Below are positions 36,901 to 59,573 of a stretch of DNA of 64,000 nt, one piece after another (the stretch's first letter is position 1; each line of letters begins with the position of its first letter). Both the position numbers and the translations under genes were made by a program. The notes beneath the pieces were generated by a model. It saw nothing but the letters and a program-made list of their open reading frames with translations, had not been told where the DNA came from and did not search any database. The stretch covers positions 8,221,488-8,285,487 of the forward strand of contig CP075497.1 in the NCBI GenBank assembly GCA_021613535.1, in the 5' to 3' direction. Origin of the DNA: Adineta vaga. Taxonomy: Eukaryota; Animalia; Rotifera.

Positions 36901-39900
36901 CAAAGGAAAAAAATCAATCACTACTGTTCTCTATTCAAAATGAACTCTTTACCACCGCTGATCATTAACACACGAAATCATAACAAACGAGCGTCACTTA
37001 CAATGCTTGCACAATCGAATAGGTAAGCAAATGTTTCTCAATTATCATATTTATTTCTAACGAAATACGAAAAAGAAAATGTTAGTCTTCAATTTCATTT
37101 CATATTCAAAAGATCGAATATCTTCATTTTTGACATTTTATTTCTTAGCGTTATCAAATCATCATCTTTGGTCAATGACTATTTTGTCAAATTTTATACA
37201 TCAAACCATTGTTCAATGTTCGATGAACAAATAAATTCGAACAATCAAAGAAAAGATGATCAGAATCAAGTAAGTAGCCATGTCCAATCTATTTTCGTAA
37301 AAATAGAGAAAGATAAAAAGAAAAGACAATTTGATATGCCTAAAAGCGAAATTTGCCGTTTTTCTTTCTCTTCTCATAATGGTTATCGATGTCTTTTCTT
37401 CTTTCTTCTCGCTCTATAACCTTGCACACTCAAATATTTGTCTCGTCTTCTTTATTGCATGAGTTGTTATTATAGTATTGCCGTTCTGTTGTCATCACTA
37501 ACACTTCATCGAATTTTCAACCTGCTAGTCTTGCGAATAATCATCGACATCATCATTATACAAAACGATATCGACGTTGTGAATACATATCAAGGTAAAA
37601 ATATTTCAACGTTTTTTTTTCGATCAATGATGACATATATTTTTGTTATCACTCTTTCATTTCTTTTCTATCAATAACTTGAATAGGTTATTTCTATAAT
37701 CTGATAAATGAAAATCAGTAGAGAACATTTGTGTATGAACATAAATCATCAATGAAGAGAGTTAATGTCTTATCTATTGAAAAGTCCAATCATGAACATG
37801 GTCTATCCCTGTCTCGACGTGTTGAAAAGACAAGATTGAATAAGTAATAACGCAAGGTCAGCTGTTCTACTATCCGATGAGTGAGTAGACATAGATTATA
37901 AGACAGTCTTACTTTGAACTTATTCCGCTGTCAATATACGATGATCATCTAACTGTTGCGATCATTAACACTTCTCTGCAAGTATGTCTAGTCTTAAACT
38001 TCTCATTCGATGAAGTCAAATAAGGCGGAGTGGGCTAATTCTTTAAAATAATCCGATTAATTTCTGTAAGATATCTTCGTACACATTTGAAAGGTTATTC
38101 ACATTGAGTGGTCATAGATAGATCATTATTATCTTTTATACACTCTCTGCATGTTACGCATTCCATTCATGCTTTAGAATTTCTTTCTTTCTTTACAAAT
38201 GCACATGCCGATTAATGAAGCGATTAATCATAAGATTCGATGGGGGAAACCAAATTTGACTCGTATTTGTCTCTGTATTCGATTTACACATCCGTTGGTT
38301 AGTGTCATTGTTGCCTGTGTGAAGGACATATCGTGATCTTAATTTACTTCATCGTTTTATTATCAGCAACAAAAACGCGGAAATCATATTCGTCTTCATT
38401 CATAACGAGCGGCAGCTATGAGCAATTCCGTTATGTATTTGTTCTACTGACCATTACCATATTAAAATCTTAGTTCCTATTTTCTATTCAATAAGTAAGT
38501 AGGCAAGAAGGAACAGGAAGAGAAAATATAAGCGTATATGTCGTTTATTAGTTAGGCAATTGGTTCTTTGTGTGACACCTCTCTTGTTCACTGTTAAACG
38601 TGCATTCTTTTCCTTTCTTTTTCATTCTTCGTTAAATCAAAAGATGATTTTGAACTCGGATGTATGTACTGTGCTCGAGCAACTACTTTGCCTGATTACA
38701 TCATTTTCATTGCCTCACTATATCTCAGATGTTTTGTTGACTTTAAGGTAGATTGTTACATAGAAAATTTTCTTCGAGAAGAAAAAAGAAACGTAACTTT
38801 TCCCTTCTTCTTCATCTTGTTCTCGAACTGATTTATTTTACTTTATCAAGGTTGAGACTTTCTTTTTTCTTCTTCTCAGATACATTGAAATCCTTGATAC
38901 TTGTTTTACAGAATATTGATGACGGGTATATGTTGTTTTTTCTTCATAAGAGAAATCAATTACTTGCTCTTGTCGCTTTTAATAATAATAGATTTGTTCT
39001 TCTTTTGAAAAAAAACAGATTCTCCTCGTATGTCATTTTGATAAACACTAGGCGTAAAAAAGTTCTTTATCTCTCTCGTTGACAACATAGACTATTAAGA
39101 AAAAAACACTTGCTAGTTACTTTAGATTTCATTAACCATGAATATGAAGTAAACATAACCTAGCCGAACAGATCTACTCGTGCGTATGTAACCAAGGACT
39201 AAGTGACAAATTAAAATAACAGCATGTGTTCGTTTTTAATTAATATTAAGAAACACAAAAATAAATCATTCTTTTTTTTCTATCTAATTCCAAGGTTAAA
39301 TAAATAGGTTATTTTGTTAGGAAGAGAATGAATGGACAGATAGATTTCAAACGAAAGCAACTCATTTTCATAGGAGATTGTTTCAATCGAGCATAGATGC
39401 CAAGATGGTCTTGAATCTTTATCAATACTTGTCATCTCGTATCTTTTCTCAGTCGATTCGCCAATTGACTTGTCATCAGAGATGAATAAAGAAAAAACGA
39501 AGAAGCAAATGCCTGGTTTTCTAATCTAGACAAATTGTTAGTAGCGGGTCAACTCGTCACAAATTCATCTATAAACAATGTCGAGAATAGAATATGCCCA
39601 TCAACTATGATGAGACATCATCACTTACTTTTGCTTCTTAGAAACAATCTCTACATTGAGTTTCCATTTTCTTTTCTGTCTTTATACATATATCCTTCAT
39701 CGTTAACAAATTACGAGATACACTGTCATCTGATCTACTGATTGATCGATGACGGTTGTTGTTGTTGTTGTTGTTTTCTCTTTCGACATGCTCTTTGTCG
39801 CCATCGAAATTGAGTTAATCTGAGCAAAGAGTAAAAAAAAAGAAACTTCATTAGTATGCATATGAGATGGACATATCTTGAAATCAGCAGTATATCATAC

Positions 39901-40273
39901 AAGAGTGCTGTTTGTATAAATATATATATATATGAGAAAGAACGACATATTTACATAGCATAGTACAGTGATGAAGTCATCTTTTATATATATATATGTA
40001 TATCAGCGAGTGAAATTCAATACTTGTCGAAGAATGTCAGTAGAGATCGTGTATAACCTTGTAGATACGTGTTCCATACGTATAGTTGTGATGTATATTT
40101 GCTTTTATATTACTTCTGTACTTGCGTCACTCAGTATAACAAAAGAGATGACACATTTCTTTCTTTTTCGCTTCTCTCTTCTCTTCTCGTTCTTGGTTTA
40201 ATCAAGTAGAAATTAGAGCCATGTCTTCTTTCATCATTTCATTTGTAGTTTGCTTTCATCGAAACAACGAGTA

Positions 40274-41717
40274 ATGATCGGCGTTGACCAAAAGCATACG
40301 ATCGGACTTATGCAACAACAAGAACAAACGCCTTTGTCTTCCTCACTTGTCCATCAATTTCCATTGTCCACTTCTCCAGATTTGACTTCAAGTATTTATG
40401 ATAATACTCATCATCAAAAGAAGTTTATCTCATCATCATCATCATCATCATCACAAGTAAGAAAAAAAAATATCAAATAACACATGTCTATGACTCTCAA
40501 GTTAATCGAATACATAAACTTAGCAGAAAGCGGGAGAGAGAGAAAAAAATAAGAGAAGAATGTCAGCATCTTCTTTTTTTCTCGATTGACCGATGCAATT
40601 TATTTCTATTCATTCAATTTTATCTCTATTAAATAACTAATACATTAGTAATGAAAAGCGTTGTGTCCCAACCGAATTACCAATGAGTTTTGAGACATGA
40701 TAAAAGAATTCATCGTTTTTTTTTCTGCATTGTTTTGTATAGATTAGACTTGGTCTACGTTGTTCATGTCCATTAGATGACAAGCAACAGCAACTATTTG
40801 ATGAGATCTTCGCTTATAATGAACAGACAACGAACATTAGTGAACGAATATTAGATGAATGTATTCCACGTCTAGCACAGAATTCTTCCAATACTTTAAT
40901 TATACTTTCTGGTCAATACAAAGATTGTAAGAACATATTGTTTGATTGAAATGATTTAAGTATCAAGAAATAAATATCTTATTTTTAGTTTATCAACTTC
41001 AAGCAATAGTTTTATCATCTACATTGACACGTTTATGTACATTTATTAAGGAAAATTCAGAAAAAGATTTAATTATTCGTATAAATGCACAAGAATTTCT
41101 TAGTAATAAAGGTAAATTCATTATTTACAAGTGTAAAGTGTTTTGTTTTACAACGTATCAGTTTTTCTTTTAGTCAAATGTTTATTTTCTTCCGATGATT
41201 TTTCTGTTATTTCGGAAAGTGAACGATATCAATGTTTAAATAATCTCTGCTCTAATCATCGTATTAATCCTTTACTAATTACATTTCATCTTTTGACTCG
41301 TTCATCAAATCTCAATCATGGATCAATCCGTATTCTTCTTACAAATCAAATCGATAATGAAATAGGGAAACAACAATTTTCCGATATATTTATGTCATTG
41401 GCATTATCATTCTCATCAAATCGACAAAAACAAACGTTTTATACATCAACGTAAGTTATACTAATTATCCTATTTTTCTTCGTATGAATGTATTTACCAA
41501 ATGTTTCTCTGACGATTATTTATATAATAGGAAGCGGAATTTAACGACTGGACTATCATTACCATCGATACTAAGCGAATACATCTCGAATCATTCGGAG
41601 CAAACATCGAAAAATTTCTTGTATATATTAGCAAATGTTAAAAATGAGAAACAGTTAAAATATTGGTCAAAAATTCAACGATTATTTCGAGTGAAAAAAC
41701 ATCGATTAAAAGTATAA
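40274..41717 (+). CDS. Hypothetical protein, five exons, no recognised domain
   Basis: Exons at 40274-40456, 40743-40926, 40989-41111, 41174-41450 and 41528-41717, with consistent splice phases throughout. The N-terminus has Gln-rich and Ser-run low complexity. The terminal stop is in frame. Confidence 0.4.
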
Positions 41718-41770
41718 TTTAGAAACAAACAAAAATCTTTTATAATAATTTTATTTATGTCAACTTTTAG

Positions 41771-43846
41771 ATGTCTCGTGAACGATTCGATTCTTATGCA
41801 GATTCATCATCTGGAGAAACAATTACAAATCGAAATAACGAAGAAATTTGGATTGATGGCCCATTAAGTTCAACGAATTCAAAAACGGAAGTTTGGATCG
41901 ATGGTCCACCTGAATTCTGTCCTCATTCAACAAGACTTCATCCTGTTAAATTGACATTGAAGCATCGTTCAAATTCAACGCGTCAATATAAATCGAAATC
42001 TAAACCATCAATATTAAATCCAAAACATCCATTACTTTCTTCAACAATTTCACAGCAAGATGATCAAGATGTTACTTCTCAAAATTTCGATACTGAATCT
42101 GTCGTCAGTTCACATTGTCATCTACCTGTCTTACCCGTATTTAAAGATCATTCATTACTTCCATTTCGTTCTCATCAAACTTTGCCACGAATAAAACCAC
42201 TGGTGACTACTAATTCGACAAAATTAGATCTGAGATTAAGTACAACAAAATTAAATGATGATATGGAAGCATTAGAAAAAACATTGGAAACATTATTGAT
42301 CCCATCACCAATTGTTGTAACTCCAAATGATAGTAGCAATTCATCAAATATGAGTCAATCATTGAATCGAATTGATCAATTATCATCATCAATGTCAAAT
42401 AGTGAAAAAACGAAACGTTTATCTCGTATTGTTTCACCGACACGTTTTGAAAAATTATTTTCGTAAGAAACTTTTTTGTCGCCATTCGATTTTCTTTACT
42501 TATTTCTAATCTTTTAGTAATAATCAATATGTTGATGATATCAATTGGTTACATCCTCTTTCATCATCATCAGTCGGTTCATCAGTTCCTAATTCTCCTT
42601 TAATTAAATCAAAAAATCGTCAAGTACGAACACCAGTAGTTGCAACACCGGAAACTCCTCGTCGTTCAGTCTTACCAACCAAAAAATCTAAAACTCTTCC
42701 TGATCAAAATCGTCAAATCACAGCAACTCATTCTCGTCCTTCCATTTTTCAACGTTTATTCGGTCTACGTTCATCATCTAATTCTCAACAACCATCGTCA
42801 CAGCAGCAACAACAACAACAACCGATATCAATTATTATTGAATCTCCGCCTGCATCACCACTAATCTCACCACTTAGAGTTACCTTAGATTCACGTGACG
42901 ATCTTATGCCTTTAACAACTAGTAGTACTGCTTCATCAGCATCTGGACGTGCCAGTTCAAGTGGTTATGAATCTATGAGTAATACAGTATTCGAAGAAAT
43001 AATCTCATCAATACCAGTCATCGTAGCAAATGAAAATAATTCAATAAAATTAAGAAATAAATCCATACGAAAAGGTATATTTCGAATTATTTTAATAATC
43101 TTATAACAACTTAATAATATCTTTTACTAGTCGAACTAATTTTCTAGAGCTTTTCAACATAGAACATCGTATTCAGACATTTCTGTACTATTCATTTGAC
43201 CTATACAATAAATATCTGAGAAGGTCATTGTAAGAATCCAATGTCTGGCGTCTTACTTAAGTTTAACGATAAATATTTAACTTTCTGTAGAGGTAATTTA
43301 GACATGCAAACTGTACGTTTGCTCAAGGATTGCCTTCGATCATATATAATAGTCAATGTTCACTAAATGTATTATTCTTTGTTACTTTTAGACGAACGAC
43401 GTTCAAATATGAATGCATTATGGAATAGTCCAATTGTAAGTTTGTAAAAAGCAATTAAATATATGCGATTTCTTTCATCATAAATAGCTTCGCGAAAAAT
43501 CGAATCGTCAACAACGTGTTTCTCAATTGAAACATCGTCAAAATGAATTAAAACTTGAATTAGCAATGACAAAAACATTTCTACTTATGGATAAAACCAA
43601 ACATTTTGATTATATTGATTGTAAATATTCGATGACTATCTTGTTTTAATCAATAATATCTTTTCTTTGACTTTTCTAGCATTCAATTCAACAATAAATA
43701 ATAGTCCAATGCATACAAATATGGCAAACACGAATGAAGAAGATGAACTTGAAAGAGATATTGACCATTTAGAACGACGTTTAGCATCTGCTAAATCACA
43801 ATTAATATTTGTCACATATCAAAAAAATAAACAACTCAAATCCTAG
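41771..43846 (+). CDS. Hypothetical Ser-rich protein with a duplicated E-[IV]-W-I-D-G-P motif and a C-terminal coiled coil
   Basis: Exons at 41771-42458, 42518-43073, 43392-43445, 43488-43612 and 43675-43846. The N-terminus reads ...NEEIWIDGPLSSTNSKTEVWIDGPPEF. Ser/Thr/Pro-rich disorder follows. The terminal exons (LREKSNRQQRVSQLKHRQNELKLELAM...ERDIDHLERRLASAKSQL) have a heptad-like pattern. Confidence 0.45.
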
Positions 43847-43995
43847 AATGAAATATCTACATTGTTTCTTTTTCTTTTTTACTTTCTTTATTTGATTTAT
43901 CACAAAAGCAAATCTACTTATTTATAAATAAATGTGCAAAAAGATTAACAGTTTTACAAAACAAAACATTATTATTTGCATGATTTTTTTCATTC

Positions 43996-44016
43996 TAGAG
44001 AAAGAGGAGAGAGAGA
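43996..44016. repeat. (GA)n microsatellite about 220 bp upstream of the intronless polytopic ORF
   Basis: A GAGAGAGAGAGAGAGAGAG run. Confidence 0.85.
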
Positions 44017-44238
44017 GAGAGAGAGTACGATTGATATGTTAAGTACACCTTGCTTGTTATTTGATTACAATCGTCATAACTGCTACTTCATCATTTTTTT
44101 CCTCCGTTCTGTATGACTGAGAAAAAAGACGTGTACGCGTGTGCATTTTTATGAGAAAGCTTATGTAAAATAGAAGGTACATATATTTATATCATTCTTT
44201 GCAGAATATTTTAGTTAAAAAACTCAAGTTGGAAGAAT

Positions 44239-45954
44239 ATGGCTTCGTTACTCGTTTTTCTCATGTACCCTCTTGTTGGGCCATTTGCAATTTTAAAACT
44301 TTATGCAAAAAATCTCATGCGACAAGCTTATGGAAGACAGATTTTACTCAAATTAGCAGCATCTATGGTTAGTTTAGCAGTCGGTTCTCAAATTGCCTAT
44401 AGATATCGTTCGAAACATACATTGATATGGTTAACTAGTGGTTTTTTAGCACTTTTGATGAATTATTGGTATATAATTCCACTTCTTCTAATATACATTC
44501 TTCCTCTGATCAATTATATAATCAGATCTTGGACTTTATTAATCGATTCATTTACTGAACGAATAATTCGTCCGAATAGCACAAAATTTCGTCAACTATT
44601 ACCATCCATATGGACATTTGAATCAAATGAAAAACTTTGGCCGATTGAAAGTATTCGTTTTATGTTAACATATGGTTCAATTGGTCCAGCACTCTATTGT
44701 GGTTACGAAGTCTATTCTCACTTATGTTTTGGTATTAGTTTTAATTTATTCATTGCAATTGGTATAACAATTCTTGTTACAACAACATTATGGCATCTAC
44801 TTGACGCGATTGATCGTGATCTTTATCCATTTATATTCGCAATTATTATTCAATATTATATCATTCCAATTCGATCAGTTCTAAACATTCCCTTAACATT
44901 ATTATTAACAACATTTTTATTTCCATTTCTAAATAATCTTTTAACAAGTAATTCAATACAAGAATTTATACAAAATATCAAATTATTAAATTTTCGAACA
45001 TTTATCGAAGGAAATCAAAATTACAAACAATTTTTTACAGAATTTGTTAATCTATTTCTTACAATTTATTTCACATATAAAATTTCAATCATATCAATTA
45101 ATAGTCATGTATCTTATTTCTTAATTCTTTCAATGATTCTAGTTTTACCGATGTATTTTTATACGAAATTAATTCGTTTTATTTCTATTGAACCAAATAC
45201 AATCATGTTTTTATTTTCATCATTTCTTTTAAGTAAAGATATTTTACAACGTCGATTGAATGATCATTTTATTTATAAATATTTTCTTCTAACTATGATT
45301 TTAACATTCTATTTCGCTTTTATTTATCCTTTATTGTATCATCTATTACGTCGTTCAATAATTAAATCTGCACATCGAATTGGTTTGAAATTAAAATCTT
45401 TTCGAGAACAAATCAATCAACTTGCACATCAGTTTAATGAACAATATTTACGTATAACATATATTCATGATCAATCAAAATACTTCATTTTACATTTATG
45501 TAATCTATTTATTGCAAGTTGTTTGTTGTTCATTCTTCCAATAAATGTTTTATTACGTGTAATCTTATCTTTATTAAGTTATTTACTTATTGGTCGATTA
45601 TTATTAGCACGTGGAATAGAAATTCTTGCAATTGTTATATCACTTTCGACAAGTATAACAGCCGGTGCTGATGTTTATGCTCGATATAATAATTCAATTC
45701 TCATAACAATGTCAATTGCTTTGATTACATATATTTCGACACTACTGATTGCATTTCCAATAATCTATCGTTTGATACAATATTTTATTACACATTTACC
45801 TTTAATAAACTATTTTGATTGGTTTTTACAAAAGATTTTCTCATTTACTTGGTCATATTTCGATATCATTTGGCGACATATAAACTCGAGTTTTAATGAA
45901 GTTAAAATGAAGATCGAACAATCAAGATTGAATATATTTCGAAATAGACAATGA
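44239..45954 (+). CDS. Intronless polytopic membrane protein (about 12-14 predicted TM helices), family unknown
   Basis: A single uninterrupted 1716-bp ORF. Chance ORFs of this length are very unlikely in AT-rich DNA, where stop codons are frequent. About 14 hydrophobic stretches of 18-25 residues are separated by short basic loops (for example RYRSKH, RRSIIKSAHR, RNRQ at the C-terminus). Confidence 0.6.
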   Translation: MASLLVFLMYPLVGPFAILKLYAKNLMRQAYGRQILLKLAASMVSLAVGSQIAYRYRSKHTLIWLTSGFLALLMNYWYIIPLLLIYILPLINYIIRSWTLLIDSFTERIIRPNSTKFRQLLPSIWTFESNEKLWPIESIRFMLTYGSIGPALYCGYEVYSHLCFGISFNLFIAIGITILVTTTLWHLLDAIDRDLYPFIFAIIIQYYIIPIRSVLNIPLTLLLTTFLFPFLNNLLTSNSIQEFIQNIKLLNFRTFIEGNQNYKQFFTEFVNLFLTIYFTYKISIISINSHVSYFLILSMILVLPMYFYTKLIRFISIEPNTIMFLFSSFLLSKDILQRRLNDHFIYKYFLLTMILTFYFAFIYPLLYHLLRRSIIKSAHRIGLKLKSFREQINQLAHQFNEQYLRITYIHDQSKYFILHLCNLFIASCLLFILPINVLLRVILSLLSYLLIGRLLLARGIEILAIVISLSTSITAGADVYARYNNSILITMSIALITYISTLLIAFPIIYRLIQYFITHLPLINYFDWFLQKIFSFTWSYFDIIWRHINSSFNEVKMKIEQSRLNIFRNRQ

Positions 45955-47782
45955 ATTAAACGATATTTTCTAAGTTATATGTTTTGATTTTATAATTAAT
46001 CATGCATGACCAACAAATATATGCAAGGTCATACAGTTTCTTTATCTTGATATGCAATTAAAAAGAAAGTCGATTTTGTCATAGATTTCTTCAATGAAAA
46101 CAATGGTTAAAGTTCTATGCTTTCTTTAGTTTGTTTGGATATAACGATTGAATAGGTCTTCATAGAATATTTTAATCGAAAATATAATAGATCATTCATT
46201 CGTTTCTTTCGTTAAAGTCATGTTATACTATGATTGTATTTATTTTTTTACATTCATCAATCGTTTTTACTTTGATTTTCAAAGAATATCAAAATCAATT
46301 CTGTTTGATTAGGAATAACATATGACTTCTCGTTTATCGTCTCATCTTTAATTCATTTTCCCAACAGGTTAGAGTTTTGATTACTTTCGAAAGTCATTTC
46401 TCTTCTTATGGCCTCTCAGTGCCTATAAGCTATAAACATCTATTCCCTGCTGTTATCACAATTTGTTTATTCGGACATGGGTCAAAGATGAATATAGCAG
46501 GAGTTAAATGCCATTTAATTAGTTCTTTATATATATTTATTCGAAGAATAAAACAAGAACAAGATTGCAGGTCAAAAAGAAAGATTTCGATATATATGCA
46601 GCAGTAGTACTATTCATTGTGTCGCGTGTCTACCATGGATGTCTGAGTGTCATTATTCGTAATTGGAGAAGCGCTATATCTTCTTACTAGAGAGTAACTT
46701 TTCTTGTCGCTCGTTTGCTTGCGTTCATGACCTTCTTTTCTCCTTTTCTCTTTTTTTTCTTTCTTGCACAAAAGTTCATCCTGACGTTGCTGAACGTTCA
46801 CTGTTCATTTATATACGTTGGCAAACGATGGAATTCGTTCTCTTCCCGTTCAATGTAGAAAAAATTTTCTCTTCTTTTTTTTGTTCTTTATCTTCTTTTT
46901 TCCTCTTCGTCTCGTATGGTCGCTAGAATAAATGAGAATTATTGACGAGGTACTTTTTTTTCATACTAGAAATATGTTTAACAACCATCTCTCATCTGCG
47001 TTCGCGTAAGAAAGAAAAAGAATGAGAGAGAGAAAGTTTGATATATGGTCATCGTCTCTTGTTTGTGTTTGACGCCCGAATGCTTTTGATATGATGAGGT
47101 GAGGACAATAGAATAATATAAATGATTGAACGAGGTGTGATAGTCGGAACTGTATACTTCAAAACATTCGGCACTAAAGGGCAGCAGACATACAGCATAA
47201 GTAAAATCCAACGAAACAAAAATCGATTTACATTCAAAAAATAAATATTTTTTTATTATTATTTAAAAGGTCTTTGCCTTGTCCCTTATGGCCATGATTA
47301 GATGTTTTTTAATTAAATGTTTTGCTTTATAAAAAATAAATTGATATCAATAGTTATTGTCTGTACGGTTTTTCGTTTGTCTTGTCATTGTACATAAATG
47401 TTTTGTCGATTTATATCGAGGACAAGGAAATGTTCCGATCGAGAGAAAGAATTTTAGTGATATCGTGCGCGTAACTTCGTTGTCATCTGTTTCTTTTTAT
47501 ATCTAATGTTTTCTAGCTTTTTATTTGCTAAAGCATACATCCTCATACTATAAAGACAAATCTAACATTGAGTTGACCATCTGGCGATGCTTTCTCGTTT
47601 CTTCTCGTCTGTTCATTTGACTCTTGAGGGTCGAACACAAATGTATATATATATGTACGTATGTATGTATGTTCGTGCTGCCGTCCTTGTCTCTTCCTCT
47701 TTCTTGTGCCCTACCATTCGTTCGTTCACCCACACTCATTCGGACAATAAAAATCGATCATTTTACGGCGGCTGCAGTAACT

Positions 47783-47798
47783 ATATATATATATATAT
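47783..47798. repeat. (TA)n microsatellite within a CT/TA-rich low-complexity region upstream of the cadherin gene
   Basis: A TATATATATATATATA run. The surrounding 47600-47830 is pyrimidine-rich and simple-sequence. Confidence 0.8.
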
Positions 47799-48025
47799 GT
47801 ATATCTCTCTTCTCTCTTTTTTTCTCCTCTCTTCATGACCGGCTCAATTTGTGGATGGCGAATGAGACTAAGCGTACGGACAGAACTGGTTCATCATCAT
47901 TGAACAGAACAGACACACATCCTTCTTTTCTTCTCTCAACATACTCTACAAGTGTTCGATAGTCTATCGTTAGTGAACTCGACTATTTTCTTTTCCTTCT
48001 TCTTTTTTTTTGTTTTAGAAAATAA

Positions 48026-48948
48026 ATGTATTATCATCATTTAAATAATTTAATAGTTTTATTTTTCCTCGTCCCAACATTAGTAGAGTTATTATCAATC
48101 AAGTCAGATATTTTAATTATACCACAAGATGCTCCACCTGGTTTTGTTCTACTGGAAGAAACAAGGCCTAGTCGAATTGATGAATTTCGACAATGTATAA
48201 ATCAAACTGAACAATTAAATATTAATATCGATGAAAAATATGGTGATTTAATATTAACTAAATCGATTGAAAATCATCTTACTAATCAACAACGACTTCT
48301 TTGTACAATTCATCGAAATCAAGTAAAGAAAAACGATTTTAATGTGAGTTTTGACAATGATCTAATCAAATTGTTAGTTGTCACATTAGGAGAGTCTACA
48401 CGCAAAGTTGTTCATACTAGGCAGACTATTTGTTCAATGAGGAAAGAAATCTATCGGAGAGGTTAATTTGTCTGATTGATGTTTATGTAAAAATAATACA
48501 GATGGAAATATGTATGGGTTTTGTTCTTTGCCTTTTCTAGCCAACGATTTTCAAACTTTACTATACAATTATTGATTCAACGAATGATATTAGTTTTACT
48601 TCACCTATCTATCATGTGGATCCAATATCATTTACTGTACATCGATTTCATAAAATTCAATGTCAGTCATCATCTTTTATTAATTATGAATTTGTTGATT
48701 CATCAATACCATTAAATATCAATCATATAACGGGAGAAATTTCATCGAAAAGTACTTGTCCAAATCTCAACGAAGTTCTCATCCGATGTTTTGATATATC
48801 CAATCGAATGAAAAATGCCCATGCAAAACTAATCTTTGATAAAATTTGTCAAACAAATTCCACTAAACAATCAGATAATAGTTGGATTAATCGAATAGGT
48901 GAAGAACGACGAAAACAAATTCATTTTCAAGAATTAGATACGACTCTG
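48026..48948 (+). CDS. Putative 5' exons of the cadherin gene (signal peptide and prodomain)
   Basis: ORF 48026-48457 begins MYYHHLNNLIVLFFLVPTLVELLS, which is signal-peptide-like. An exon at 48541-48948 is in phase with the RSRR-containing exon that starts at 49576. The junction between 48457 and 48541 could not be put in frame, so an intervening micro-exon or an alternative first exon is possible. Confidence 0.35.
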
Positions 48949-49575
48949 GTAAGTTAATACAATCATCATTTGAGGAGTAGGAAAAGAAAAACAAACCAAA
49001 TCTCGCGTGAGCAATTGATTAGAAAATAGAAATGGTTTATCAATCGTCTGATTACATAAATCAGTTGATGATCTAAGCAAGTCGAGAGATGACTTTAATT
49101 TCCTGTTGAAAAAAGCAGATGAGAGATTTCTTACACAGCTGTCTCTATTGATTTTAGTCGGTGTTTAAAAGAGAACTTTGCGTTATTATCCTAGAATGTC
49201 AATTGAAATACAATGTAAAATAGAAACGAATCGTTCAAAAGAACTCTCTGTTTTCTCTTTCTCAAGAGCTTTTAAACGTATTCATACTTTTAACTATGAG
49301 AATAACAAGAATTATATAATCGATTGAGTTGTATTATTGATCAGTCTGTAAAAGAGAACTGCAAATATTGTTTCTATGTTTCAATGAACATTGTAAGTAG
49401 TTCATGTCTGTTGACACGTTACATCCGTTCACTTTACATACAATCTAATAGAAATATACCTAAAAGCATAGTGTATCAATAGTACCATCATTGTTCTCTC
49501 GATGGAATAAAGAAAATAGAATTAAGATAAATCAAATGATATTGTTTTTATTGATAATTGTTTTTCTTTGTAAAG

Positions 49576-52500
49576 ACTCAATCAATTCGTTCTCGACGAC
49601 AACAATCCGCTCAACCACCATCACGTTTAACAATACATTTTAATGAATCTTATATTGGTGCTATATCTCAAATAAAATATTGTCGAAAACAAACATCTAA
49701 AGATCATCTTGAACAAACATTTCAATTTCCAACGAAATATGAAACATTCCTACGTGAACGTTTACAAATCAATGATCAAGGACAATTATCTGTTTTACGT
49801 CCATTTGATTATGAAACATTTCAAACAGTTACATTTCAATTTCGTTGTTTAATCTTAGAACAACAAAATGGTGGAATGAATTTAACACGTGTCAATAAAA
49901 CAGAAGATATTCAACTCATCATTGATGATATCAATGATGAAGTACCACGTTGGATTATGGATGAACCATTTCAATATGGAACATATTTTGGTTATGTAGA
50001 AAAAAGTGCACGACCTGAAACACCTGTTTTTCGTTTTAAAGCATTTGATCCTGATACAACATCGAAATTAACCTATGAAATTGTTCAAGGAGATAAGAAT
50101 CTTTTTCATCTATCATCAGATGGAACATTAACAACAAATTCAAATCAACAATTAGTTTTTCCTATGTATAATTTAACTGTTCGTGCAATAGATTTAAATT
50201 CTCAAGTTTCATCAATGTCTCGTTCAAATCAAGCTCATCTTTTAATTCGTACTGATCGTTTTGATCCAAAATTTTTCCAACAAAAATATATCTTTAATGT
50301 TAGTGAATATACTCAACCATCGACTGTCATTGGAACAATTCGAGCAAAATCTTATTCAACCACAAGTGATAATCTAAGATATTTCTTACAACAACCAATT
50401 ACAGGTGGTACACAAACAATTCTTCAATCCGGAACAATTAGTAGTGGTGGTGGTGGTGATATGTATGAATTTAAAATTGATGAAACTGAAGGTTCAATTA
50501 AAATCTTAAAAATGCTCAGATATTCCGATCAACATAATAATAATACAAAATATTTTACAGGTAAATAAGGTTGAAAATGATGAATGAGATATCAAAGGAT
50601 AGAAAGAAAGATAGAATATAACATGATTGATGATGAATCTTATCAGTTGTTATTAATCTTGCGACGAAGTTTATCAATGTTCAGATACGTTGATTTCTAT
50701 TCAAACGAAAATTACCTGTCAGTCTATAATGAAAAGAATTATACTTGAGATGCAGAATCATTCATAACAGATGATTAAATACATGAAAATATATTCATTA
50801 CTGAATATTTTTGAGTTGATCAAGTTCATTGTATATCGTTGATTCGAAATGAAGCCAATATATCTGGAATAAATTTAATTACAACTAATAACTGATTTTT
50901 TCCTTGTGCATTTCAGGTGTTGTGAAAGAATTAAGTGGTTGGCAATTGCAATCTCATGTTGATATTGAAATTCATGTAATTGATATCAATGATAAAATTC
51001 CTACATTTAAACAAACGTATTATACGCCTCAAATTTCTGAAGATTATCCATTGAATACACCAATTATAAATTTTACTGTTACTGATGATGATGCACGTTA
51101 TACTCCAAATTCTAATATTACTCTTGATTTAATTGATCCATATGGAAAATTTGCGATATTCAATGATACACGTGTGTCAACATCAAATAATATTCAAGCA
51201 TATCTTATTGCTAAAGAACGTTTGGATTATGAATCTTTATCTCCATTAGATCGACAATATAAATTGAAAATAATTGCACGTGATCATGGACATCCACAAC
51301 CATTACAATCGGAAGCACAGATTTATATCACTATAACTGATGTTAATGATGAAGTAAGGAATTTAGTTAGAAAATTTATTTCCTAATTCGTACTTTTATT
51401 ATTTTATTTAGCCACCTGTTTTCAAAGAAAATCCAGTACAAAAAACAATTGCAGAAAATACTCAACGAGGAACATTTGGTAAAAATAGCTCATTAAATTT
51501 TTTCGTACGGAAATTTAGAAAAAAAATGAATTTGATTTTTTAGTGGTTTTTGTTAATGTTGTTGACCCAGAATACAATGATTCGGTTACTGTACACTTTT
51601 TACCAACATCGGAATATAATCCATTTCGAATTATTACAAGTCCTGGTGGTGGAAGAGTTGTTCTTGAACAAGCACTTCTACCGGATAAAGAACTTTATAA
51701 TTTAACTATTCAAGCATCGGATCGACTTGGACATACGTCTCAAGCACAACTTTTAATTACTATCTATGATGTTAATGATCATACAGTAAGCAGAGTATTT
51801 TTATATTTTGTTTCAATTTGAAAGCGTTTGTGTGTGTGTGTGTTCTTCTTTAGCCACGTATTGAACAATGTGAACAAGGAATAATTACAGCTTCGATTCG
51901 TGAAAATGCAACAATGAACACTCAAATTATAAAGATCAATGCGACAGATGAAGATCGTGGTTTAAATGGTGAAATTCAATTTTCATTAAAAGGAACAAAT
52001 GATCCTCAACAAGATTCCGATATGTTTTCAATTGATGCTGATACAGGAATGGTATCAAATAAAAAGAAATTAAAACATTTAAAATCAGGTTTTAGTGAAT
52101 ATACGATGACAATATTTGCACAAGATAAAGATCCATCAAATTCACGTTCAACACATTGTATTTTGAAAATAACTGTAGAAGATATCAATGATCAGTAAGT
52201 CGATTCACATTTTGAAAGAATAAAATTAACCAATTTATGTACTCTTTTAGTTATCCTTTAATCACATCACCAGCTCGTGATAATGATTTAATATCAATTA
52301 AAATGGAAAAACGTGTTAATTTCAATTATCCCGTTCTTGTCGTTCGTGCTAAAGATGAAGATAGTGGAAAAAATGCTCTTCTACACTTCTCACTCAAATC
52401 TCGTGATGATTGTTCGAATGGTATTGAATATTTCGTTATTGATCCTCAATCTGGCGTTATATCCACACGTTCATCGAATGTAAATAATCCAATTAATTTA

Positions 52501-55500
52501 CAACTTAAATATTGTCTTGTTGTACAAGTATGCGATTCACCTGATGATGGACCTCCAAAATGTTCCGAACGTAAAATTCAATTTCAATTGTCACAAGATG
52601 GTTTTGAACCACCCATATGGGCGCCTGAAACTGCGTTAACATTTCAACGTGTGATGAAAGTTGTTGAATTAGCTCAACAAAATATTGTTATTGATACATT
52701 TAAAGCATCTATCGCAAATGATTCAACAAAAAAAGTTATCTTCGAAATGGAACCATTTAATTGGACATGTTCAAATGCAGCATCAGCAAGTGAAAAACCT
52801 CGTATACCATTTTTATTAACACCAGATGAAAATGGACGAAATATTGCACGATTAGTTATCTATCAACCTATTGATGCTGATCCACCCACAGGTTGTACAC
52901 GATATCAGTTTAAGATTCGTGCCAAAAATGCAGCAATGGAAGCTTTATCATTAGAAAGTATCTATGAAATTGAAATCGTCGATTCAAATGATAATATTCC
53001 AATGTTCAATGTTAGTTCATATCGTGCACAAATATATGAAAATGAAGTCAAAGATAATCTATTACGTGTACAAGCTGAAGATAAAGACATTGATCCTAAA
53101 AATCGTAATACAACTTATTTTATTCGATGTCCTAATGATGGTATGAATTCTATTTGTTTTTAAAATATACAAATAAATTTTACTACATTGTCTCTTCTTC
53201 TAGGTAATCAACAAAATCTTCAATATCATTACAATAGTCCATTGTCCAATTCTTTATCATGTCAAGGAATTGTTTCGATTGATCCTGAAACAGGTTGGAT
53301 CAGTGTTCAACGACAATTTGATTATGATAATCCATCGGATCGTCGTTTTGTCTTTGATGTTTTTGCGAAAAATATTCTTCCATCAGATCGATGTAGTGGA
53401 CAAAACACGAAAGAATCTCAAGCACAATCATCTTCTCTATCATCTGGAGCTGATGCTAATCCAACCATTCAAATATGTGTTACAGAACATCGTGTACCCG
53501 TTATTATCGAAGTACTCGATAGAAATGATAATGCGGTAAGAAGTTTTTTCATTTAACCTTCATACGAATTAAATTACGAATTTCATTTTGTTTTCTTCTT
53601 TAGCCACAATTCAATAATTTACCTTATTTTACAAAAGTAATGGAAGATGCTGAACCAGGAACGACAATCTTTCATTTGAATGTTAGTGATGTTGATACTG
53701 ACGATATTTTAACATTTTCTATTGTTAATGAACAAGAAGCAAGCGCATTTGCAGTGAAAGAAAATACGGGTGAAGTGTATCTTGCTTCTGCTCTTGATTA
53801 TGAACGTGTTCAACAACATAGTGTAGAAGTTCAAGTTAGTGATTCAAATAATGAACATCGTGCTAGAACAATCCTAACAGTTATCGTCGAAGATGCTAAT
53901 GATAATCCACCACGTTTTCTGAATTTACCGAAGGAAATTGTTGTGGAGGAAGGTCGACAAACACTTGATTATGATCAGTTAATATTACGTCAACCAGCAC
54001 GAATCAAACGTGATACTCAAATGAATAAGAAACAAAAAGATTCGAATAAAAAACGGATTTCAACATCAACAAAATATCCTGATGAAGATTCCGATAGCTA
54101 TTCTTCTTCTCAACCCTATACATCCCGTATTATATATCGAGTTGAAGCAATCGATCCTGATTTTGGTCGTCCATTAAAATTGCCTATTCGATATACCTTA
54201 ACTTCATCGAATCCTTTATATACGCAATTCTTTGAAATTCATCCATTAAATGGAACGATTCATTTGAAAAAAGAATTAGATCGTGATCCACCCAATGGTT
54301 TTGATGAATGGTTATTAACTATTATTGCAGCAGATGAAGATGGTAGAGAAGATATGGGTTCAAAGAAAAATGCATCATGGTTAAAAATCATTGTTAAAGA
54401 TATCAATGATTTAGCTCGTAAGTTTCATTTCTTCTCATTTCTTATCATATACGTATTTCTTCTTCTAGCAATGTTTATTGACGTTGATCCAATTGGACAT
54501 ATACCTGAAAATGCACGAGCAGGTACACGTGTTGAAGGTTTAAGAATTAAAGCTACTGATTATGATAAATTATCTGAAAATACAACACGATATGCATTAA
54601 CATTGAATACGAAATCAATCGATGGTTCGGATGTTTTTCGTATTGATGAAATTACTGCAGATATTTATCTGAATGTTGATAATTATCTGGATAGAGAAAA
54701 AACTCCTCATCATAATCTATCAGTTATTGCAAGGGATTCAGGTGATCAATCTGGAAATTTGCAATCAAAAGAATTGAAAATTACGATTATTATTGATGAT
54801 GTTAATGATATGCCGGTAAGAATTTTTATTTTTGAATGAGAATATTATTCTATAGTTGTTGTTGTTGTTTCTAGCCACGATTCAAACCATCAAATCAACA
54901 AGCACAGATATCGGAAACAGCACAACGAGGCGATTTTGTTACTGAAGTTCGAGCAGAAGATGATGACGTGGGAGTAAATACACATTCTTTATATGAAATT
55001 ATTGAAGAATGTCAATTAACCAATGATCAAATGATACATTGTTCACGACCAAGATATTTCATTTTTAAAGAAACAGCATTAGCTGAAAAGGGTACAATTA
55101 TTCTCCTCGAACCAGTTAATTATGATCCACCTGATAATCAAGTAAAATTTCTCTTAAAAATCAAAGCAACAAATGGTGGCATGTCAGATTATGCCAATGT
55201 CACAGTATTTATCACTGATGCTAATGATAATGTTCCAGGTTAGTTTTAAGAATGATTATTTAAACTTTAATATAACTTTTCTTTTTCCTTTGCTTAGTCT
55301 TTTCTCAATCGGTTTATTTTGCTAATATTAGTGAAAATACACCATTGGAAAAAGAAATTCTTCGTGTACAAGCTACTGATAATGATGTCAGTCCAATAAA
55401 TAAAGAATTTATTTATCGTATTCCACCAGATCGTTCTCAATATGAAAATCGTCAACATTTACGTATTGATGCAATCAATGGTCGAATATATTTAAAGAAA

Positions 55501-58500
55501 AATTTCGATCGTGAAAAATCGTCAACAATCAGTTTACCTATCGAAGCTGTTAATAATCAAAGTTCGAATCCATTAGTTGGTCGTGCTGTTTTAGTCATTA
55601 ATGTACTCGATGTGAATGATAATCCTCCACGATTTGCTGAAAACTATTCTCCACGTGTACGTGAACATAAAAGCGGTGGAAAGATTTTCGAATTTGAAAT
55701 CAATGATCCTGATGATTCGAATAGTGGAAGAAATAAATTTCAAATGAAACTTGGTTAGTATTGTAGAGATTAGATTGAAGAGTATTTGACAAGTAAATGA
55801 ATTTTTTTATTATAAATTTTAGGTAAAAATAATGTTTGGCCTGAACAAGGTGATCCAAAATTTCGTCTGGATATTCAATATAGTGCTGATGGTAGACCAC
55901 GTGGTACTCTCAGTAGTTTACGTGAACTTGATCGAGAAGAACTTTGTCCGAAAGATGAACAATATAAAAATCAACGTTATTGTGGCAAATATTATGATTT
56001 GCCCATTTGGATGTCAGATGGTGAACAATCAGGCATTAATCATCTTCGCGTTCTTGTTGAAGATATTAATGATAATCCATTCAATAGTGGCTATAAATCT
56101 ATTGATATTTATGATTATAAACATATTCTAAGTAAATTATTATCAACATCAAATATATATCTTGGTACTGTGTATACTGATGATGAAGATGATTGGGATT
56201 TACATAATAAAGTTTTTGAACTTCAACCATCTGATGATAACAATTTCCTACATGTTGATAAAAATCTACAAACATCACGAACACCTGGTGCAATCTACTT
56301 AACTACCCAAAACAATAATGCAACAATCAAACATAGTAAGTTCAAATCTTACTTATCTTCTAATTCACATTCGATGTTTCTTATTTTCTAGATACTCCAT
56401 ATAAATATGATATTATCGTTCGCGATACACATCCACAATGGTTAAATCGAGATCCTCAAACATCTTATATTGAATTTCGTTTATATGAATTACCATCTGA
56501 TGTATTAGATAATGCTGCATCGATTCGTCTTCAAGATATAACAGCTGAAGAGTTTATTGAAACACGTCATCGAGATGAATCGTTCTTGGCAATTTTCAAA
56601 CGTTTAATCTTAGAAATCAATTCTCAAGCACGTCAAATAGAAGTTTTTTCAATACAAAATCATGAAACTTTAGTTCGTACAATCGATGTTTACTATGCAT
56701 TACATGGTAGTGGCTATCTATCGAAAGTAAAAATCAATGGTCTTGTTGAAATTTCACGTTCAAAATTAGAGAAATATTTCAATATAAGTCAGATAGGTAT
56801 CGATGAATGTTTAAATGCTGATCAACAATGTTTTACAATTGGTTGTTTGAATCAAATTGAAATTCAATCAAAACAACCCTATTTAATCAATGCCAATCAA
56901 ACTTCATTTGTTGGTTTAAATCTTAAAACAGTTGCCAAATGTGCTTGTGATACAGATGTTCATATTCAACAAGAAAAACAAAGAGAATTATTAAAAACAC
57001 AGAAATATTGTTTAAACGGTGGATATCCAACAAGAGATAATCATCATATCAAATGTGTTTGTCCTGATCATTCATTGTATAATGGTGGTGATCGTTGTCA
57101 ACTAACAAGTATTTCATTTGATGGTAAGTAAAGCAATGTTTTTCAATGAATAAAATCAAAACGTTCTCATTCATTCTTTCCGTAGGAAATGGTTATGGTT
57201 GGTATAAACCATTAACAACATGTGATACATGGATGTTATCTATTGAATTTTTAACTCAAGCATCGAATGGTTCAATCTTATATAATGGACCTTTGAATAA
57301 ACGAATACAATCGGAAGATTTCTTTGCAATACAATTATTAAATGGTCGTCTTTTAATTGATTTAAATTTTGGTAATGGAGCAAGTATTCGTCGACATTTG
57401 AAAACAAGTATAAATCTTGCTGATGGTAAATGGCATACAATTGAAATACGACAAATTAGTACTATTGATCATATTTTGGAAATTCTAATTGATTATTGTC
57501 CAATAACAAGTACATCGAAACAACTTAGTGAATGTCGATTCATGATTGAATTCAACGAAGATGATGTTTTTAGTAGCAATCAACCTTTACAGTTAGGTGG
57601 TATTGCTCTACAAGAAAAACAAAATCATCAACAACAATTACCAATGGAATATATGGGCAATTTTAAAGGTAAATATTGATTATTATAAATAAATAAGAAC
57701 AAAATTCTATTTCAACTTATTATTTAGGTTGTATTCGAAATCTTCGTTTTGCTGATGAATTATATGATCTTCATGTCGATTTACACAGTGGTCAATCAGT
57801 TAATCTACATGAAGGTTGTCTTCTAACTGATTTAAAATGTCAAAAACTTTCTTGTCAATCTAATAATGGTATTTGTGATGCTGATCTTTATCAAGCTCAA
57901 TGTGTTTGTAAATCTGGTCGAACAGGTTCCACATGTTCTCAAGACACGACTGCATATGACTTTACTTATGATAAACAAACTTGGACAGGTGATCGTGCAT
58001 CCTATGCTACATTTCGTCATCAACATAAACCTGATAATGATTTAACATATTCATCACAAATATTAAAATTTCAAATCATGTTTCGTACACGTGAAACATC
58101 GGATAATATCTTAACATTAATAGATTTTCATAATGATGATACATTCATGTTTTTGGAAATTAAATCAGGACATTTACAAGCACGATTTGGTTCGAAATCA
58201 GATACGCAATCAATTGATTTAAAACATGTTTCAGTTAATGATGGACGATGGCATACAGCTTATCTTAATCGTTATGGTCAACGATTATTCTTACGACTTG
58301 ATGATGGAGAATATTATCGATCGAATATGAGTTATGGAAAATCAATATGGAAACATTTTCCAAATACTCTATTAAATGTTGGTGCTCGAATTGATTCGGT
58401 AAGAATGATTTTTCTCTCGTGTAGAACTATAACGATTTTAATCAATTTTTTTAGGCTGTTCATAAAATTGTTACTGCCGATTTTAATGAGGGTTGTATTA

Positions 58501-59573
58501 TGGATGTTCGTTTCAATGGTCAAGTTCTTGATTTATTAAATGGTTCATCATCATCAGATATGAAATGGACATTTCAATCAAATATTAAAGAAGGTTGTGA
58601 TAATCTCGATAATTGGTGTCGTGGTGTTCAATGTCGTTCACCAGCATTTTGTGTCAATACATGGAGATATGGTCAATGTCAATGTACAGATGCATATAGA
58701 TATAATCCTGCAAATGAAACGTGTATTTTATATGATTGGTGTTCTGATATAACAAATCCATGTCATATGCCAGGTACAAAAAATTGTTTATATGAAGCTC
58801 GTGAAGATTCAATTAAATGTGAATGTAAATCACGTTGGCAAGGTGACCGTTGTACAATTAAAGCAATGCCATTAGCAGGAACATTTAATTGGCATATAAT
58901 TGCATCAACAATTTTCTGTCTAATAGTTATTTTACTTCTTGTTCTATTACTTGTTTTATTTACACGACAACGACAGTCGAAAAAGGCTTATATACTCGGT
59001 ATGGATGATGAAATTCGAGATAATATTATAAATTATGATGAAGAAGGTTGTCCAGATGAAGATCCAGTTACTTATGATATATCAACATTGAAAAAACCTG
59101 TTTTTACAGCAAATGGAAATACGAATACGAATCGAAATGGTCGACAAAATTCTGAATCGGAAAGTAAACCATTACTAAAAACTGCTTTAGATGGAAATAA
59201 TCAAACAGATTCATCGAAAAAGAACGTAATTCGAAAAGATATGCCACCTGTACCAGCACCAAAACCTGTTCTAAATAAAAATCAAATGAATGGTTTAAGT
59301 AATGGTATTAACGTTGGAGAATTTATTAAAGGTCGAATACGTGATATTGACGACGATCCATCTCAACCGCCATATGATAGTTTACAAGAATATGCCTATG
59401 AAGGTGAACCATTAGCAAGAAATGATGAATGTTCATTATCAACATTGACGATTACTTCGAAAGATCAGAGTGAAATCGATAAAGAATTTGAACTTGAATA
59501 TTTAAAAAACATGGGACCGAAATTTCAAAATATTGCTAAACTTTATGCTGGCAATGGAGAAAAAGAATCTTAA
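49576..59573 (+). CDS. Classical cadherin of the invertebrate type-III architecture: multiple extracellular cadherin repeats, EGF-like and laminin-G modules, a single TM and a catenin-binding cytoplasmic tail
   Basis: Sixteen exons with mini-introns of 50-345 bp: 49576-50560, 50917-51353, 51412-51478, 51544-51785, 51854-52194, 52251-53140, 53204-53535, 53604-54417, 54469-54815, 54875-55238, 55298-55753, 55823-56335, 56392-57142, 57186-57668, 57728-58398 and 58453-59573. The prodomain ends at a furin site RSRR. At least 12 EC repeats are bounded by DxNDNxP-type linkers (DINDEVPRW, DVNDE, YDVNDHT, DSNDNIPMF, DRNDNA, DANDNPPRF, DINDLA, DVNDMP, DANDNVP, DVNDNPPRF, DINDNPF) with internal DxD/DxE Ca-binding motifs. 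The membrane-proximal region has Cys-rich EGF and LamG modules, a TM segment IIASTIFCLIVILLLVLLLVLF, and the tail ...YDSLQEYAYEGEPLARNDECSLSTLTITSKDQSEIDKEFELEYLKNMGPKFQNIAKLYAG. This tail matches the beta-catenin-binding consensus of classical cadherins. Confidence 0.9.

Follow-up and report, generated by a model that had tools for sequence, protein, structure and literature searches.

A single-exon gene of bdelloid rotifers encodes a four-module membrane protein of probable bacterial origin

Results

An uninterrupted 571-codon gene among intron-rich genes

The stretch of DNA analysed here, hereafter called the window, comprises 64,000 nucleotides of the genome of the bdelloid rotifer Adineta vaga (contig CP075497.1 of assembly GCA_021613535.1, positions 8,221,488 to 8,285,487 of the forward strand), and all positions given below are those of the window. 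Its longest open reading frame (ORF), which is the subject of this work, is located on the + strand, begins with the ATG at position 44239, is closed by the TGA at position 45954 and contains 571 codons; the runner-up encodes 420 amino acids (aa). On the basis of the ORF itself, its rotifer and bacterial homologues and the ratio of nonsynonymous to synonymous substitutions (dN/dS), the region 44239..45954 (+) is annotated as the single-exon coding sequence (CDS), 571 codons plus TGA, of a membrane protein with ~15 predicted transmembrane helices. With the base composition of the window (~30% G+C), the chance of encountering 571 codons without a stop is ~8e-21. The ORF has a G+C content of 27%, the encoded protein has a high content of L, I and F, and the G+C content at third codon positions (GC3) is 0.165, against 0.10-0.16 in the other ORFs and exons sampled across the window. 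A first-pass annotation, made from the letters of the window alone, had reported an uninterrupted ORF of 571 aa embedded among genes that are split by introns. Both observations are borne out, as the frame is open from the ATG to the TGA and the neighbouring genes carry introns of ~60 nt, for instance the one with the ends gtaag...ttttag at ~42465-42527 in the upstream gene.

Rotifer orthologues occupy the same position

A word-indexed protein search recovered 21 rotifer homologues of 495-591 aa (19 of them at least 548 aa long) that share 59-75% identity. Those with a species name belong to Adineta steineri, A. ricciae, Rotaria sordida, R. magnacalcarata and Rotaria sp. Silwood1/2, and in a neighbour-joining tree the window sequence clusters with the Adineta-like sequences. 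The orthologue of A. steineri, that of R. magnacalcarata and one on a metagenomic bdelloid-like contig of 527 kb are uninterrupted frames of 1725 nt, corresponding to 574 codons and a stop, and are located between a gene of ~840 aa without Pfam match and a cadherin gene of ~3165 aa. The order in the window is identical: upstream lies an intron-rich gene of ~840 aa without Pfam domain at 39071..43846 (+), delimited by sequence, orthologous gene models and synteny, and downstream lies an intron-rich gene for a classical cadherin at 48026..59573 (+), recognised by domain matches and synteny. The same upstream gene also precedes a divergent orthologue (P0022; 587 aa, 38% identity), which is a single ORF, and a single-ORF copy of 569 codons on the Logan genomic contig L018. 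In all, intronless orthologues in the same slot were found in A. steineri, R. magnacalcarata and three bdelloid-like contigs, some of them very divergent, and synteny between the same intron-bearing animal genes was observed at six rotifer loci, none of which are assembly duplicates. Hence, physical linkage to metazoan genes, a criterion for candidates of horizontal gene transfer, was found in the window and at six further rotifer loci.

The dN/dS ratio, determined by the Nei-Gojobori method, is 0.28 versus both A. steineri and R. magnacalcarata, a value that should be read as resembling an upper bound because dS is close to saturation. The first-pass annotation had proposed that orthologues in related genomes be inspected for introns, and all the homologues that we recovered are uninterrupted; it had also considered that the ORF might be spurious if it were not conserved in related genomes, a concern that is answered by the same-slot orthologues and by the dN/dS value. 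Contig L018 was also considered as evidence of transcription, and was rejected as such because it is genomic. Judged from these sequence comparisons, the 571-codon ORF is a genuine, old and constrained bdelloid gene, and not a spurious, contaminating or recent one.

Several observations concern the individual rotifer loci. The A. steineri contig CAJNOM010000295.1 (loci L001 and L002) contains the orthologous CDS twice, in identical (dS = 0) and inverted copies that are separated by ~80 kb. The two copies of the locus span 50-64 kb (reversed) and 145-159 kb, and their flanking gene models differ slightly (842 versus 830 aa upstream, and 3167 versus 3142 aa for the cadherin); the inverted duplicate represents a bdelloid palindrome or else an artefact of the assembly. 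The syntenic locus on the 527-kb contig (L005; ENA ERZ26165376, ctg355325_15x_c) has a G+C content of 49.7%, versus 29-32% in Adineta, Rotaria and the window, and its proportion of synonymous differences is above 0.89 in comparisons with the other orthologues. The contig seems to come from a GC-rich rotifer lineage whose codon usage is radically different. There is, in addition, a second, divergent lineage of bdelloid paralogues (P0023, P0024 and P0027, the cluster of the latter being named Rotaria sp. Silwood2). A paralogue on contig L012 (ENA ERZ25069412, ctg837020, positions 258-3359 of that contig) is uninterrupted over 419 called codons; its match ends at about position 398 of the 574 positions of the profile, and an RVT_1 reverse-transcriptase ORF follows it near the end of the contig, so that it looks as if this paralogue is disrupted by, or adjacent to, a retroelement.

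Homologues in bacteria

A profile hidden Markov model (HMM) built from 19 rotifer sequences (alignment A1) was used to search a library of 1.84 billion cluster representatives, which stand for about 15 billion predicted proteins. The 69 matches fall into two clean classes with respect to amino acid composition: 13 are rotifer-like proteins, or fragments, of AT-rich genomes, and the other 56 are A/G/V-rich (GARP-rich) proteins, mostly of 620-820 aa, with E values down to 2e-17. The best matches of the second class are collinear with the rotifer profile across nearly its whole length. According to look-ups of the exact sequences, the members of this class that have a taxonomic name are all hypothetical proteins of Candidatus Obscuribacterales, Candidatus Melainabacteria or "Cyanobacteria bacterium HKST-UBA01"; one further member is labelled only "soil metagenome", with a locus tag "CYA1" that hints at a cyanobacterial bin. 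When species-representative genomes of bacteria and archaea were searched with a sub-alignment profile, a single match was obtained, in a Melainabacteria genome bin. The contigs that encode these proteins are up to 1.1 Mb long, the loci have a G+C content of 53-64%, and the annotated ones are compact and prokaryotic in nature, with genes for fumarase C, a NUDIX protein, DeoC, an M20 peptidase, an S1 protein and a Ser/Thr kinase with TPR repeats. Among eight bacterial loci compared, no conserved neighbour was found except for a NUDIX gene, which is present in three of them. Because of their names, the length of the contigs, their G+C content and their compact prokaryotic neighbourhoods, we consider these family members to be truly bacterial.

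The relationship between the rotifer and the bacterial proteins was examined in several ways. When the rotifer alignment was compared by hhalign with one of 34 bacterial proteins, a probability of 99.93% and an E value of 3.7e-36 were obtained over 562 columns, which covers both alignments nearly from end to end. An HMM built from bacterial sequences only scored the ORF with 184 bits (E 4e-49 at library size), compared with at most 5.7 bits for 500 composition-preserving shuffles and the reversed sequence, and none above ~3 bits for the other ORFs of at least 60 aa in the window (192 scanned in all). Even pairwise, BLASTP aligned a rotifer with a bacterial protein over 551 aa (101 bits, 22% identity). 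Adding the bacterial sequences to the AlphaFold2 input raised the predicted local distance difference test score (pLDDT) from 62.5 to 86.7 and the predicted template modelling score (pTM) from 0.50 to 0.78, as expected if the rotifer and the bacterial sequences share one fold. Moreover, the rotifer and bacterial proteins contain the following pairs of motifs in the same order (rotifer/bacterial): NYWYIIP/TYWYVWP, E.N.NYKQFF.EF.N/YDE.D..YR.FF.H..N, TYIHD.SKYFILHLCN/TY.DK..Y..LFLH..N, SYLLIGRLLL/SYLLVGKLLL, FPIIYR/FPL.YL and TWSYFDI.W/.W..F...W. On these grounds, the homology between the rotifer and the bacterial sequences is considered secure. The suggestion that the gene might be a lineage-specific orphan does not hold, given that ~56 bacterial clusters are homologous to it over nearly the full length.

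Architecture of the encoded protein

The helices of the AlphaFold2 model and hydropathy together give ~15 membrane helices and four long amphipathic helices, in fair agreement with the ~14 hydrophobic helices of the first-pass annotation. The first model, which was based on rotifer sequences only, was discarded as too poor (pLDDT 62.5); the model that includes the bacterial sequences (pLDDT 86.7, pTM 0.78) is the one referred to below.

Four modules can be delineated along the protein. Module R1 (aa 1-120; 44239..44598, +), for which both hhalign and the AlphaFold2 model were used, is truncated at its N-terminal side and contains three membrane helices, a linker helix and the motif NYWYIIPLLLIY with P81. 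The remaining three were delimited by hhalign. Module R2 (aa 130-250; 44626..44988, +) is the most degenerate copy and carries the motif LFPFLNNLL with P229. Module R3 (aa 251-399; 44989..45435, +) is composed of an amphipathic helix with NYKQFFTEFVN and four membrane helices, and contains IYPLLYHLLRR with P364 and Y367. Module R4 (aa 404-545; 45448..45873, +) contains TYIHDQSKYFILHLCN, SYLLIGRLLL with Y448 and G452, and FPIIYRL with P507, and ends in a C-terminal amphipathic helix with W538. The similarity is most evident between R3 (aa 251-399) and R4 (aa 404-543), which hhalign aligns with a probability of 99.5% and an E value of 9e-23 over ~132 columns. R1 (aa 37-119) aligns with aa 460-550 (probability 95.8%, E 8e-9), and R2 (aa 142-240) aligns weakly with part of R3 (aa 266-375; probability 82.5%, E 1e-5). 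We infer from these alignments and the model that the protein consists of four tandem modules in the same orientation, each of which would comprise a basic or aromatic amphipathic helix, placed at the cytoplasmic face, and then four membrane helices, with R1 lacking the first membrane helix. A cytoplasmic location is presumed for the linker helices rich in K/R (aa 96-120, 238-255, 378-404 and 523-561), and the positive-inside rule predicts that the N-terminus is outside and the C-terminus inside. Twelve positions are nearly invariant across both kingdoms: L26, Y31, P81, P229, Y308, P364, Y367, N422, Y448, G452, P507 and W538. The Tyr, Gly and Pro residues among them occupy equivalent positions in successive modules, the conserved set also includes Asn and Trp, and no charged residue is found among these near-invariant positions.

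A collinear match over nearly the full length, the R3/R4 duplication and the motifs SYLL.G(K/R)LL, FP..Y and (F/I)LH..N, all of which were found for the protein encoded by the ORF, characterise what we call the Obscuribacterales/bdelloid four-module membrane-protein family, which is defined in this analysis and has no database entry. In searches of Pfam and NCBIfam, the ORF protein gave no match at E<=10, no Pfam domain of any kind, including nucleotide-binding ones, was detected in it, and nothing was found for the other rotifer and the bacterial members. Sequence-profile searches of the PDB with rotifer and bacterial members returned nothing significant, and a Foldseek search of the PDB with the AlphaFold2 model revealed no fold relative (E>1, template modelling score at most 0.14). 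Neither a profile match nor a shared fold links the protein to MFS, ABC, GPCR, MATE/MOP or other transporter and receptor superfamilies. A fold search of the BFVD viral structures gave nothing, and no relatives were found when viral contigs were scanned with the rotifer and bacterial profiles. The first-pass annotation, which had described the protein as one of unknown family without MFS, GPCR or ABC signature, thus agrees with the empty results of Pfam, NCBIfam and the PDB; neither a homologue with a known fold nor one with introns was found, a clear homologue that combines both being what it had regarded as evidence against its proposal.

Flanking sequences and other features of the window

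The ORF is preceded by an intergenic spacer of ~390 bp (43847..44238, +) that, judged from its sequence, presumably contains the promoter and the 5' untranslated region (UTR). The last coding exon of the upstream gene ends at ~43846, and the gene-poor stretch that had been reported directly upstream of the ORF is therefore not there; the longer spacer is at the downstream side, where ~2 kb separate the ORF from the coding exons of the cadherin gene. The upstream spacer contains AG dinucleotides at 44203-44204 and 44215-44216 that are possible splice acceptors, and no cross-species conservation was found between the end of the upstream gene and the ATG. The (GA)n tract mentioned in the first-pass annotation is present as a (GA)9 microsatellite at 44007..44024, 215 bp 5' of the ATG (no strand assigned), and appears from the sequence to be incidental. 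It was considered as a conserved promoter element and rejected, because the 350-450 bp examined upstream of the orthologous genes contain at most (GA)4. Directly after the stop codon, ATTAAA at 45955..45960 (+) is a possible polyadenylation signal.

The 61-nt intron of the upstream gene (~42467-42527) is missing in the orthologous genomic contig of another bdelloid (L018 positions 2098-2108 versus window positions 42454-42570), which indicates that the presence of introns in this neighbouring gene varies among species. The cadherin gene appears as many separate ORF pieces between 48026 and 59573. Its domain matches in the window are to cadherin repeats and to a Y-type LIR cytoplasmic tail, and the orthologous gene models additionally show laminin-G domains. 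An ultra-conserved non-coding block (46622-46770) separates the ORF from the coding exons of the cadherin gene and is accompanied by further conserved blocks at ~46326-46592, 47007-47221, 47498-47700 and 47785-48005. The core of the first block, ~110 nt long (GTGTCGCGTGTC...GTCATTATTCGTAATTGGAGAAGCGCTA...CGTTTGCT.GCGTTCATGACCTTCT), is nearly invariant among loci whose synonymous sites are saturated, and this invariance extends to the genome with 50% G+C and to the locus of the orthologue with 38% identity. The block may correspond to the cadherin promoter, to a 5' UTR exon or to an RNA of an unrecognised type; an Rfam search of the ORF flanks, this block included, gave no match.

Two other features of the window are worth recording. 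At 21701-23792 (+), a 420-aa ORF without Pfam match is followed, after 77 bp, by a 250-aa ORF that matches ADP-ribosyltransferases of the bacterial-toxin type (PF03496 ADPrib_exo_Tox, E 4e-7; PF01129 ART), and this pair may represent another gene of foreign origin in the window. Downstream of the cadherin gene, at 60741-61862 (+), there is an exon of an MFS/sugar transporter (PF00083, PF07690) that is unrelated to ORF 44239..45954.

Discussion

Bdelloid genomes are known to contain exceptionally many genes of non-metazoan origin (PMC5916493). We consider it probable that the ORF described here is another such case, that is, a functional bdelloid gene of bacterial descent, with a donor that was most likely related to Obscuribacterales/Melainabacteria. 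In a single transfer that preceded the divergence of the sampled bdelloid lineages, an intronless bacterial gene would have been inserted between two animal genes; subsequently, its composition would have drifted towards the AT-rich codon usage of the host, and the gene would have come under purifying selection without ever gaining spliceosomal introns. A single ancient transfer is the most economical reading because the bacterial diversity is found within one lineage, no other eukaryote is represented among the matches from the 1.84 billion representatives, the rotifer sequences are monophyletic (neighbour-joining tree), and the gene is intronless among intron-rich ones. All the matches that we obtained are either rotifer-like or bacterial, so that the gene has only non-metazoan homologues outside the rotifers, as is required of candidates for horizontal gene transfer. 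Diversity is far greater among the bacterial members (22-37% identity to a reference bacterial sequence) than among the rotifer ones, and the host-like GC3 of 0.165 together with the dN/dS of ~0.28 are compatible with domestication. With regard to the direction of the transfer, the R3/R4 duplication, common to both kingdoms, offers an internal root for a tree, and in this tree the rotifers are nested inside the bacteria in both repeat subtrees. The direction from bacterium to bdelloid is moderately supported by these sequence comparisons.

It should be noted that several observations weigh against this view. In the midpoint-rooted tree, the rotifer clade is located on a long branch that is sister to all bacteria instead of being nested among them. 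The nesting in the repeat-rooted tree was obtained by neighbour-joining on ~150 columns, and only 16 of 100 bootstrap replicates gave a clean split between R3 and R4, 15 of which nested the rotifers. The taxonomy of the donor is derived from a handful of named metagenome-assembled genomes, most of the bacterial members being metagenome proteins. The lack of non-rotifer eukaryotes refers to the matches among the 1.84 billion representatives, the genomes of monogononts, seisonids and acanthocephalans not having been searched explicitly at the DNA level. Finally, the absence of introns alone is weak evidence for a foreign origin, because the share of single-exon gene models is 21-25% in three of four bdelloid genomes, the exception being R. 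macrura with 4.3%, whose annotation made no use of RNA-seq; the genes have on average 4-5 introns with a median length of 55-67 nt (PMC5916493). The intronless state is thus not exceptional in bdelloids.

Alternative explanations for these data have to be considered. A rotifer, or some other eukaryote, might have passed the gene on to bacteria, which is the reverse direction of transfer, or both groups might have received it from a third, unsampled donor such as other bacteria, a protist or a virus. The trees do not single out a donor and most bacterial members are metagenome sequences, which is compatible with this possibility; we nevertheless regard it as unlikely, given that the diversity of the bacterial sequences is much above that of the rotifer clade, that rooting on the internal repeat nests the rotifers in the bacteria, that neither sequence-pattern scans nor the fold search revealed viral relatives, and that the gene is intronless in every rotifer examined. 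Vertical descent of an ancient eukaryotic or animal gene, which would have been lost or have diverged beyond recognition in all other sequenced eukaryotes and whose lack of introns would merely reflect the single-exon background, would be in line with the frequency of intronless genes in bdelloids, with the stable synteny of the locus and with the midpoint-rooted tree, in which the rotifers form a long branch apart from the bacterial cluster. However, this scenario requires massive parallel loss, since a search of 1.84 billion representatives with the rotifer profile yields bacterial proteins at E values of 1e-17 but not one other eukaryote, and the narrow bacterial distribution, with all named members belonging to Obscuribacterales, is unlike that of a universal ancient family. 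Vertical descent therefore seems quite improbable to us.

An even lower probability is assigned to the proposal of the first-pass annotation that the gene is a retrogene, that is, a processed copy of an intron-containing bdelloid paralogue. The absence of introns, the ATTAAA after the stop codon and the existence of a second, divergent paralogue lineage in bdelloids would fit this idea, but an intron-bearing parental paralogue was not found and all recovered homologues are uninterrupted, including, over its 419 called codons, the L012 paralogue beside the reverse-transcriptase ORF at the end of its contig. Besides, the syntenic copy is common to all sampled lineages, so that retroposition would have to predate them, and the bacterial homologues provide a simpler account of the missing introns. 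There is hardly any chance that the ORF is spurious or derives from a bacterial contaminant in the assembly, for which the only argument is the lack of a family annotation. The chance of such an open frame is ~1e-20, the gene is under purifying selection, it occupies the same slot between intron-bearing animal genes at six non-duplicate rotifer loci, and its G+C content of 27% and host-like GC3 contrast with the 53-64% G+C of the bacterial loci; synteny and composition refute this explanation.

Returning to the view that the gene was acquired from a bacterium, the interpretation of the first-pass annotation stands in part: acquisition and membership of an undescribed family are retained, and its ideas of a retrogene, for which we found no support, and of a strict orphan are abandoned. 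The qualification "recent" must be dropped as well, in view of the syntenic intronless orthologues in both Adineta and Rotaria, the host-like GC3 and the dN/dS of ~0.28.

As regards the function, the four modules in like orientation, the conserved residues at repeat-equivalent positions and the lack of a catalytic or nucleotide-binding signature lead us to speculate that the protein might be a passive, pseudo-symmetric channel, a facilitator or a membrane scaffold rather than a pump or an enzyme, although we hold this to be a doubtful guess. No clue to the function came from the gene neighbourhoods of the eight bacterial loci, which are not conserved, or from the PDB, which contains no fold relative. 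Going one step further, and equally tentatively, the Obscuribacterales/bdelloid proteins could possess an undescribed fold, consisting of four tandem 4-helix modules with interfacial helices, and form a new class of pseudo-symmetric channels or facilitators that was co-opted from an eaten or co-living bacterium and kept in every bdelloid lineage for tens of millions of years. If true, this would be a rare instance in which a large multi-helix membrane protein of bacterial origin has become functionally integrated in animal membranes.

The uptake of foreign genes by bdelloids is well established, and one more case leaves the overall picture unchanged. What is less usual here is the nature of the product, the Obscuribacterales-like apparent donor and the uncharacterised family without a fold relative in the PDB. 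Transfer of a large integral membrane protein implies that its insertion and targeting had to work in the animal cell. The apparent donor group is little studied, and our literature search yielded no paper that links bdelloid gene transfer with Melainabacteria or Obscuribacterales. The family lacks annotation and a PDB fold relative and is otherwise confined to uncultured bacteria, yet purifying selection acts on it in an animal, so that the rotifer copy provides an experimentally tractable eukaryotic handle on it. More generally, some of the single-exon bdelloid genes that are taken for orphans may be old transfers, the donors of which are perhaps visible only by profile searches at the scale of metagenomes.

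The rotifer protein can be compared with three kinds of known systems. Its closest counterparts are the proteins of Obscuribacterales/Melainabacteria, such as MCB9466984.1 and HEY9870440.1, with which it shares the four-module architecture, homology over nearly the full length and the motifs TY.D...Y..FF.H..N, SYLL.G(K/R)LL, FP..Y and, at the C-terminal end, W..F...W. The rotifer proteins fall short of them in length by ~80 aa, with reduced loops and a reduced N-terminal extension, and are rich in L, I, F, N and K, whereas the bacterial ones are rich in A, G and V; in addition, the His of the H..N motif in repeat 3 of the bacterial proteins is Glu in the rotifers.

A second comparison is with the candidate genes for horizontal gene transfer (HGTc) described in bdelloids by Nowell et al. 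2018 (PMC5916493). Like them, the ORF has only non-metazoan homologues and is linked to metazoan genes on the same contig, and, like them, it is host-like in composition and common to Adineta and Rotaria, which points to an old, domesticated gene. A difference is that the most similar bacterial proteins share only 17-22% identity with it and were almost all recovered in recent metagenome assemblies; a similarity-index screen run with an older UniRef release would probably have classed the ORF as an orphan. As far as is known, the described bdelloid transfers are dominated by soluble enzymes, from which the product of the ORF, a large multi-helix membrane protein, also differs. Finally, tandem helical modules with interfacial amphipathic helices are found in the 4-helix units of Piezo blades and in four-domain cation channels, and, by way of analogy only, the rotifer protein likewise appears to be built from tandem, parallel helical modules that are joined by amphipathic helices.

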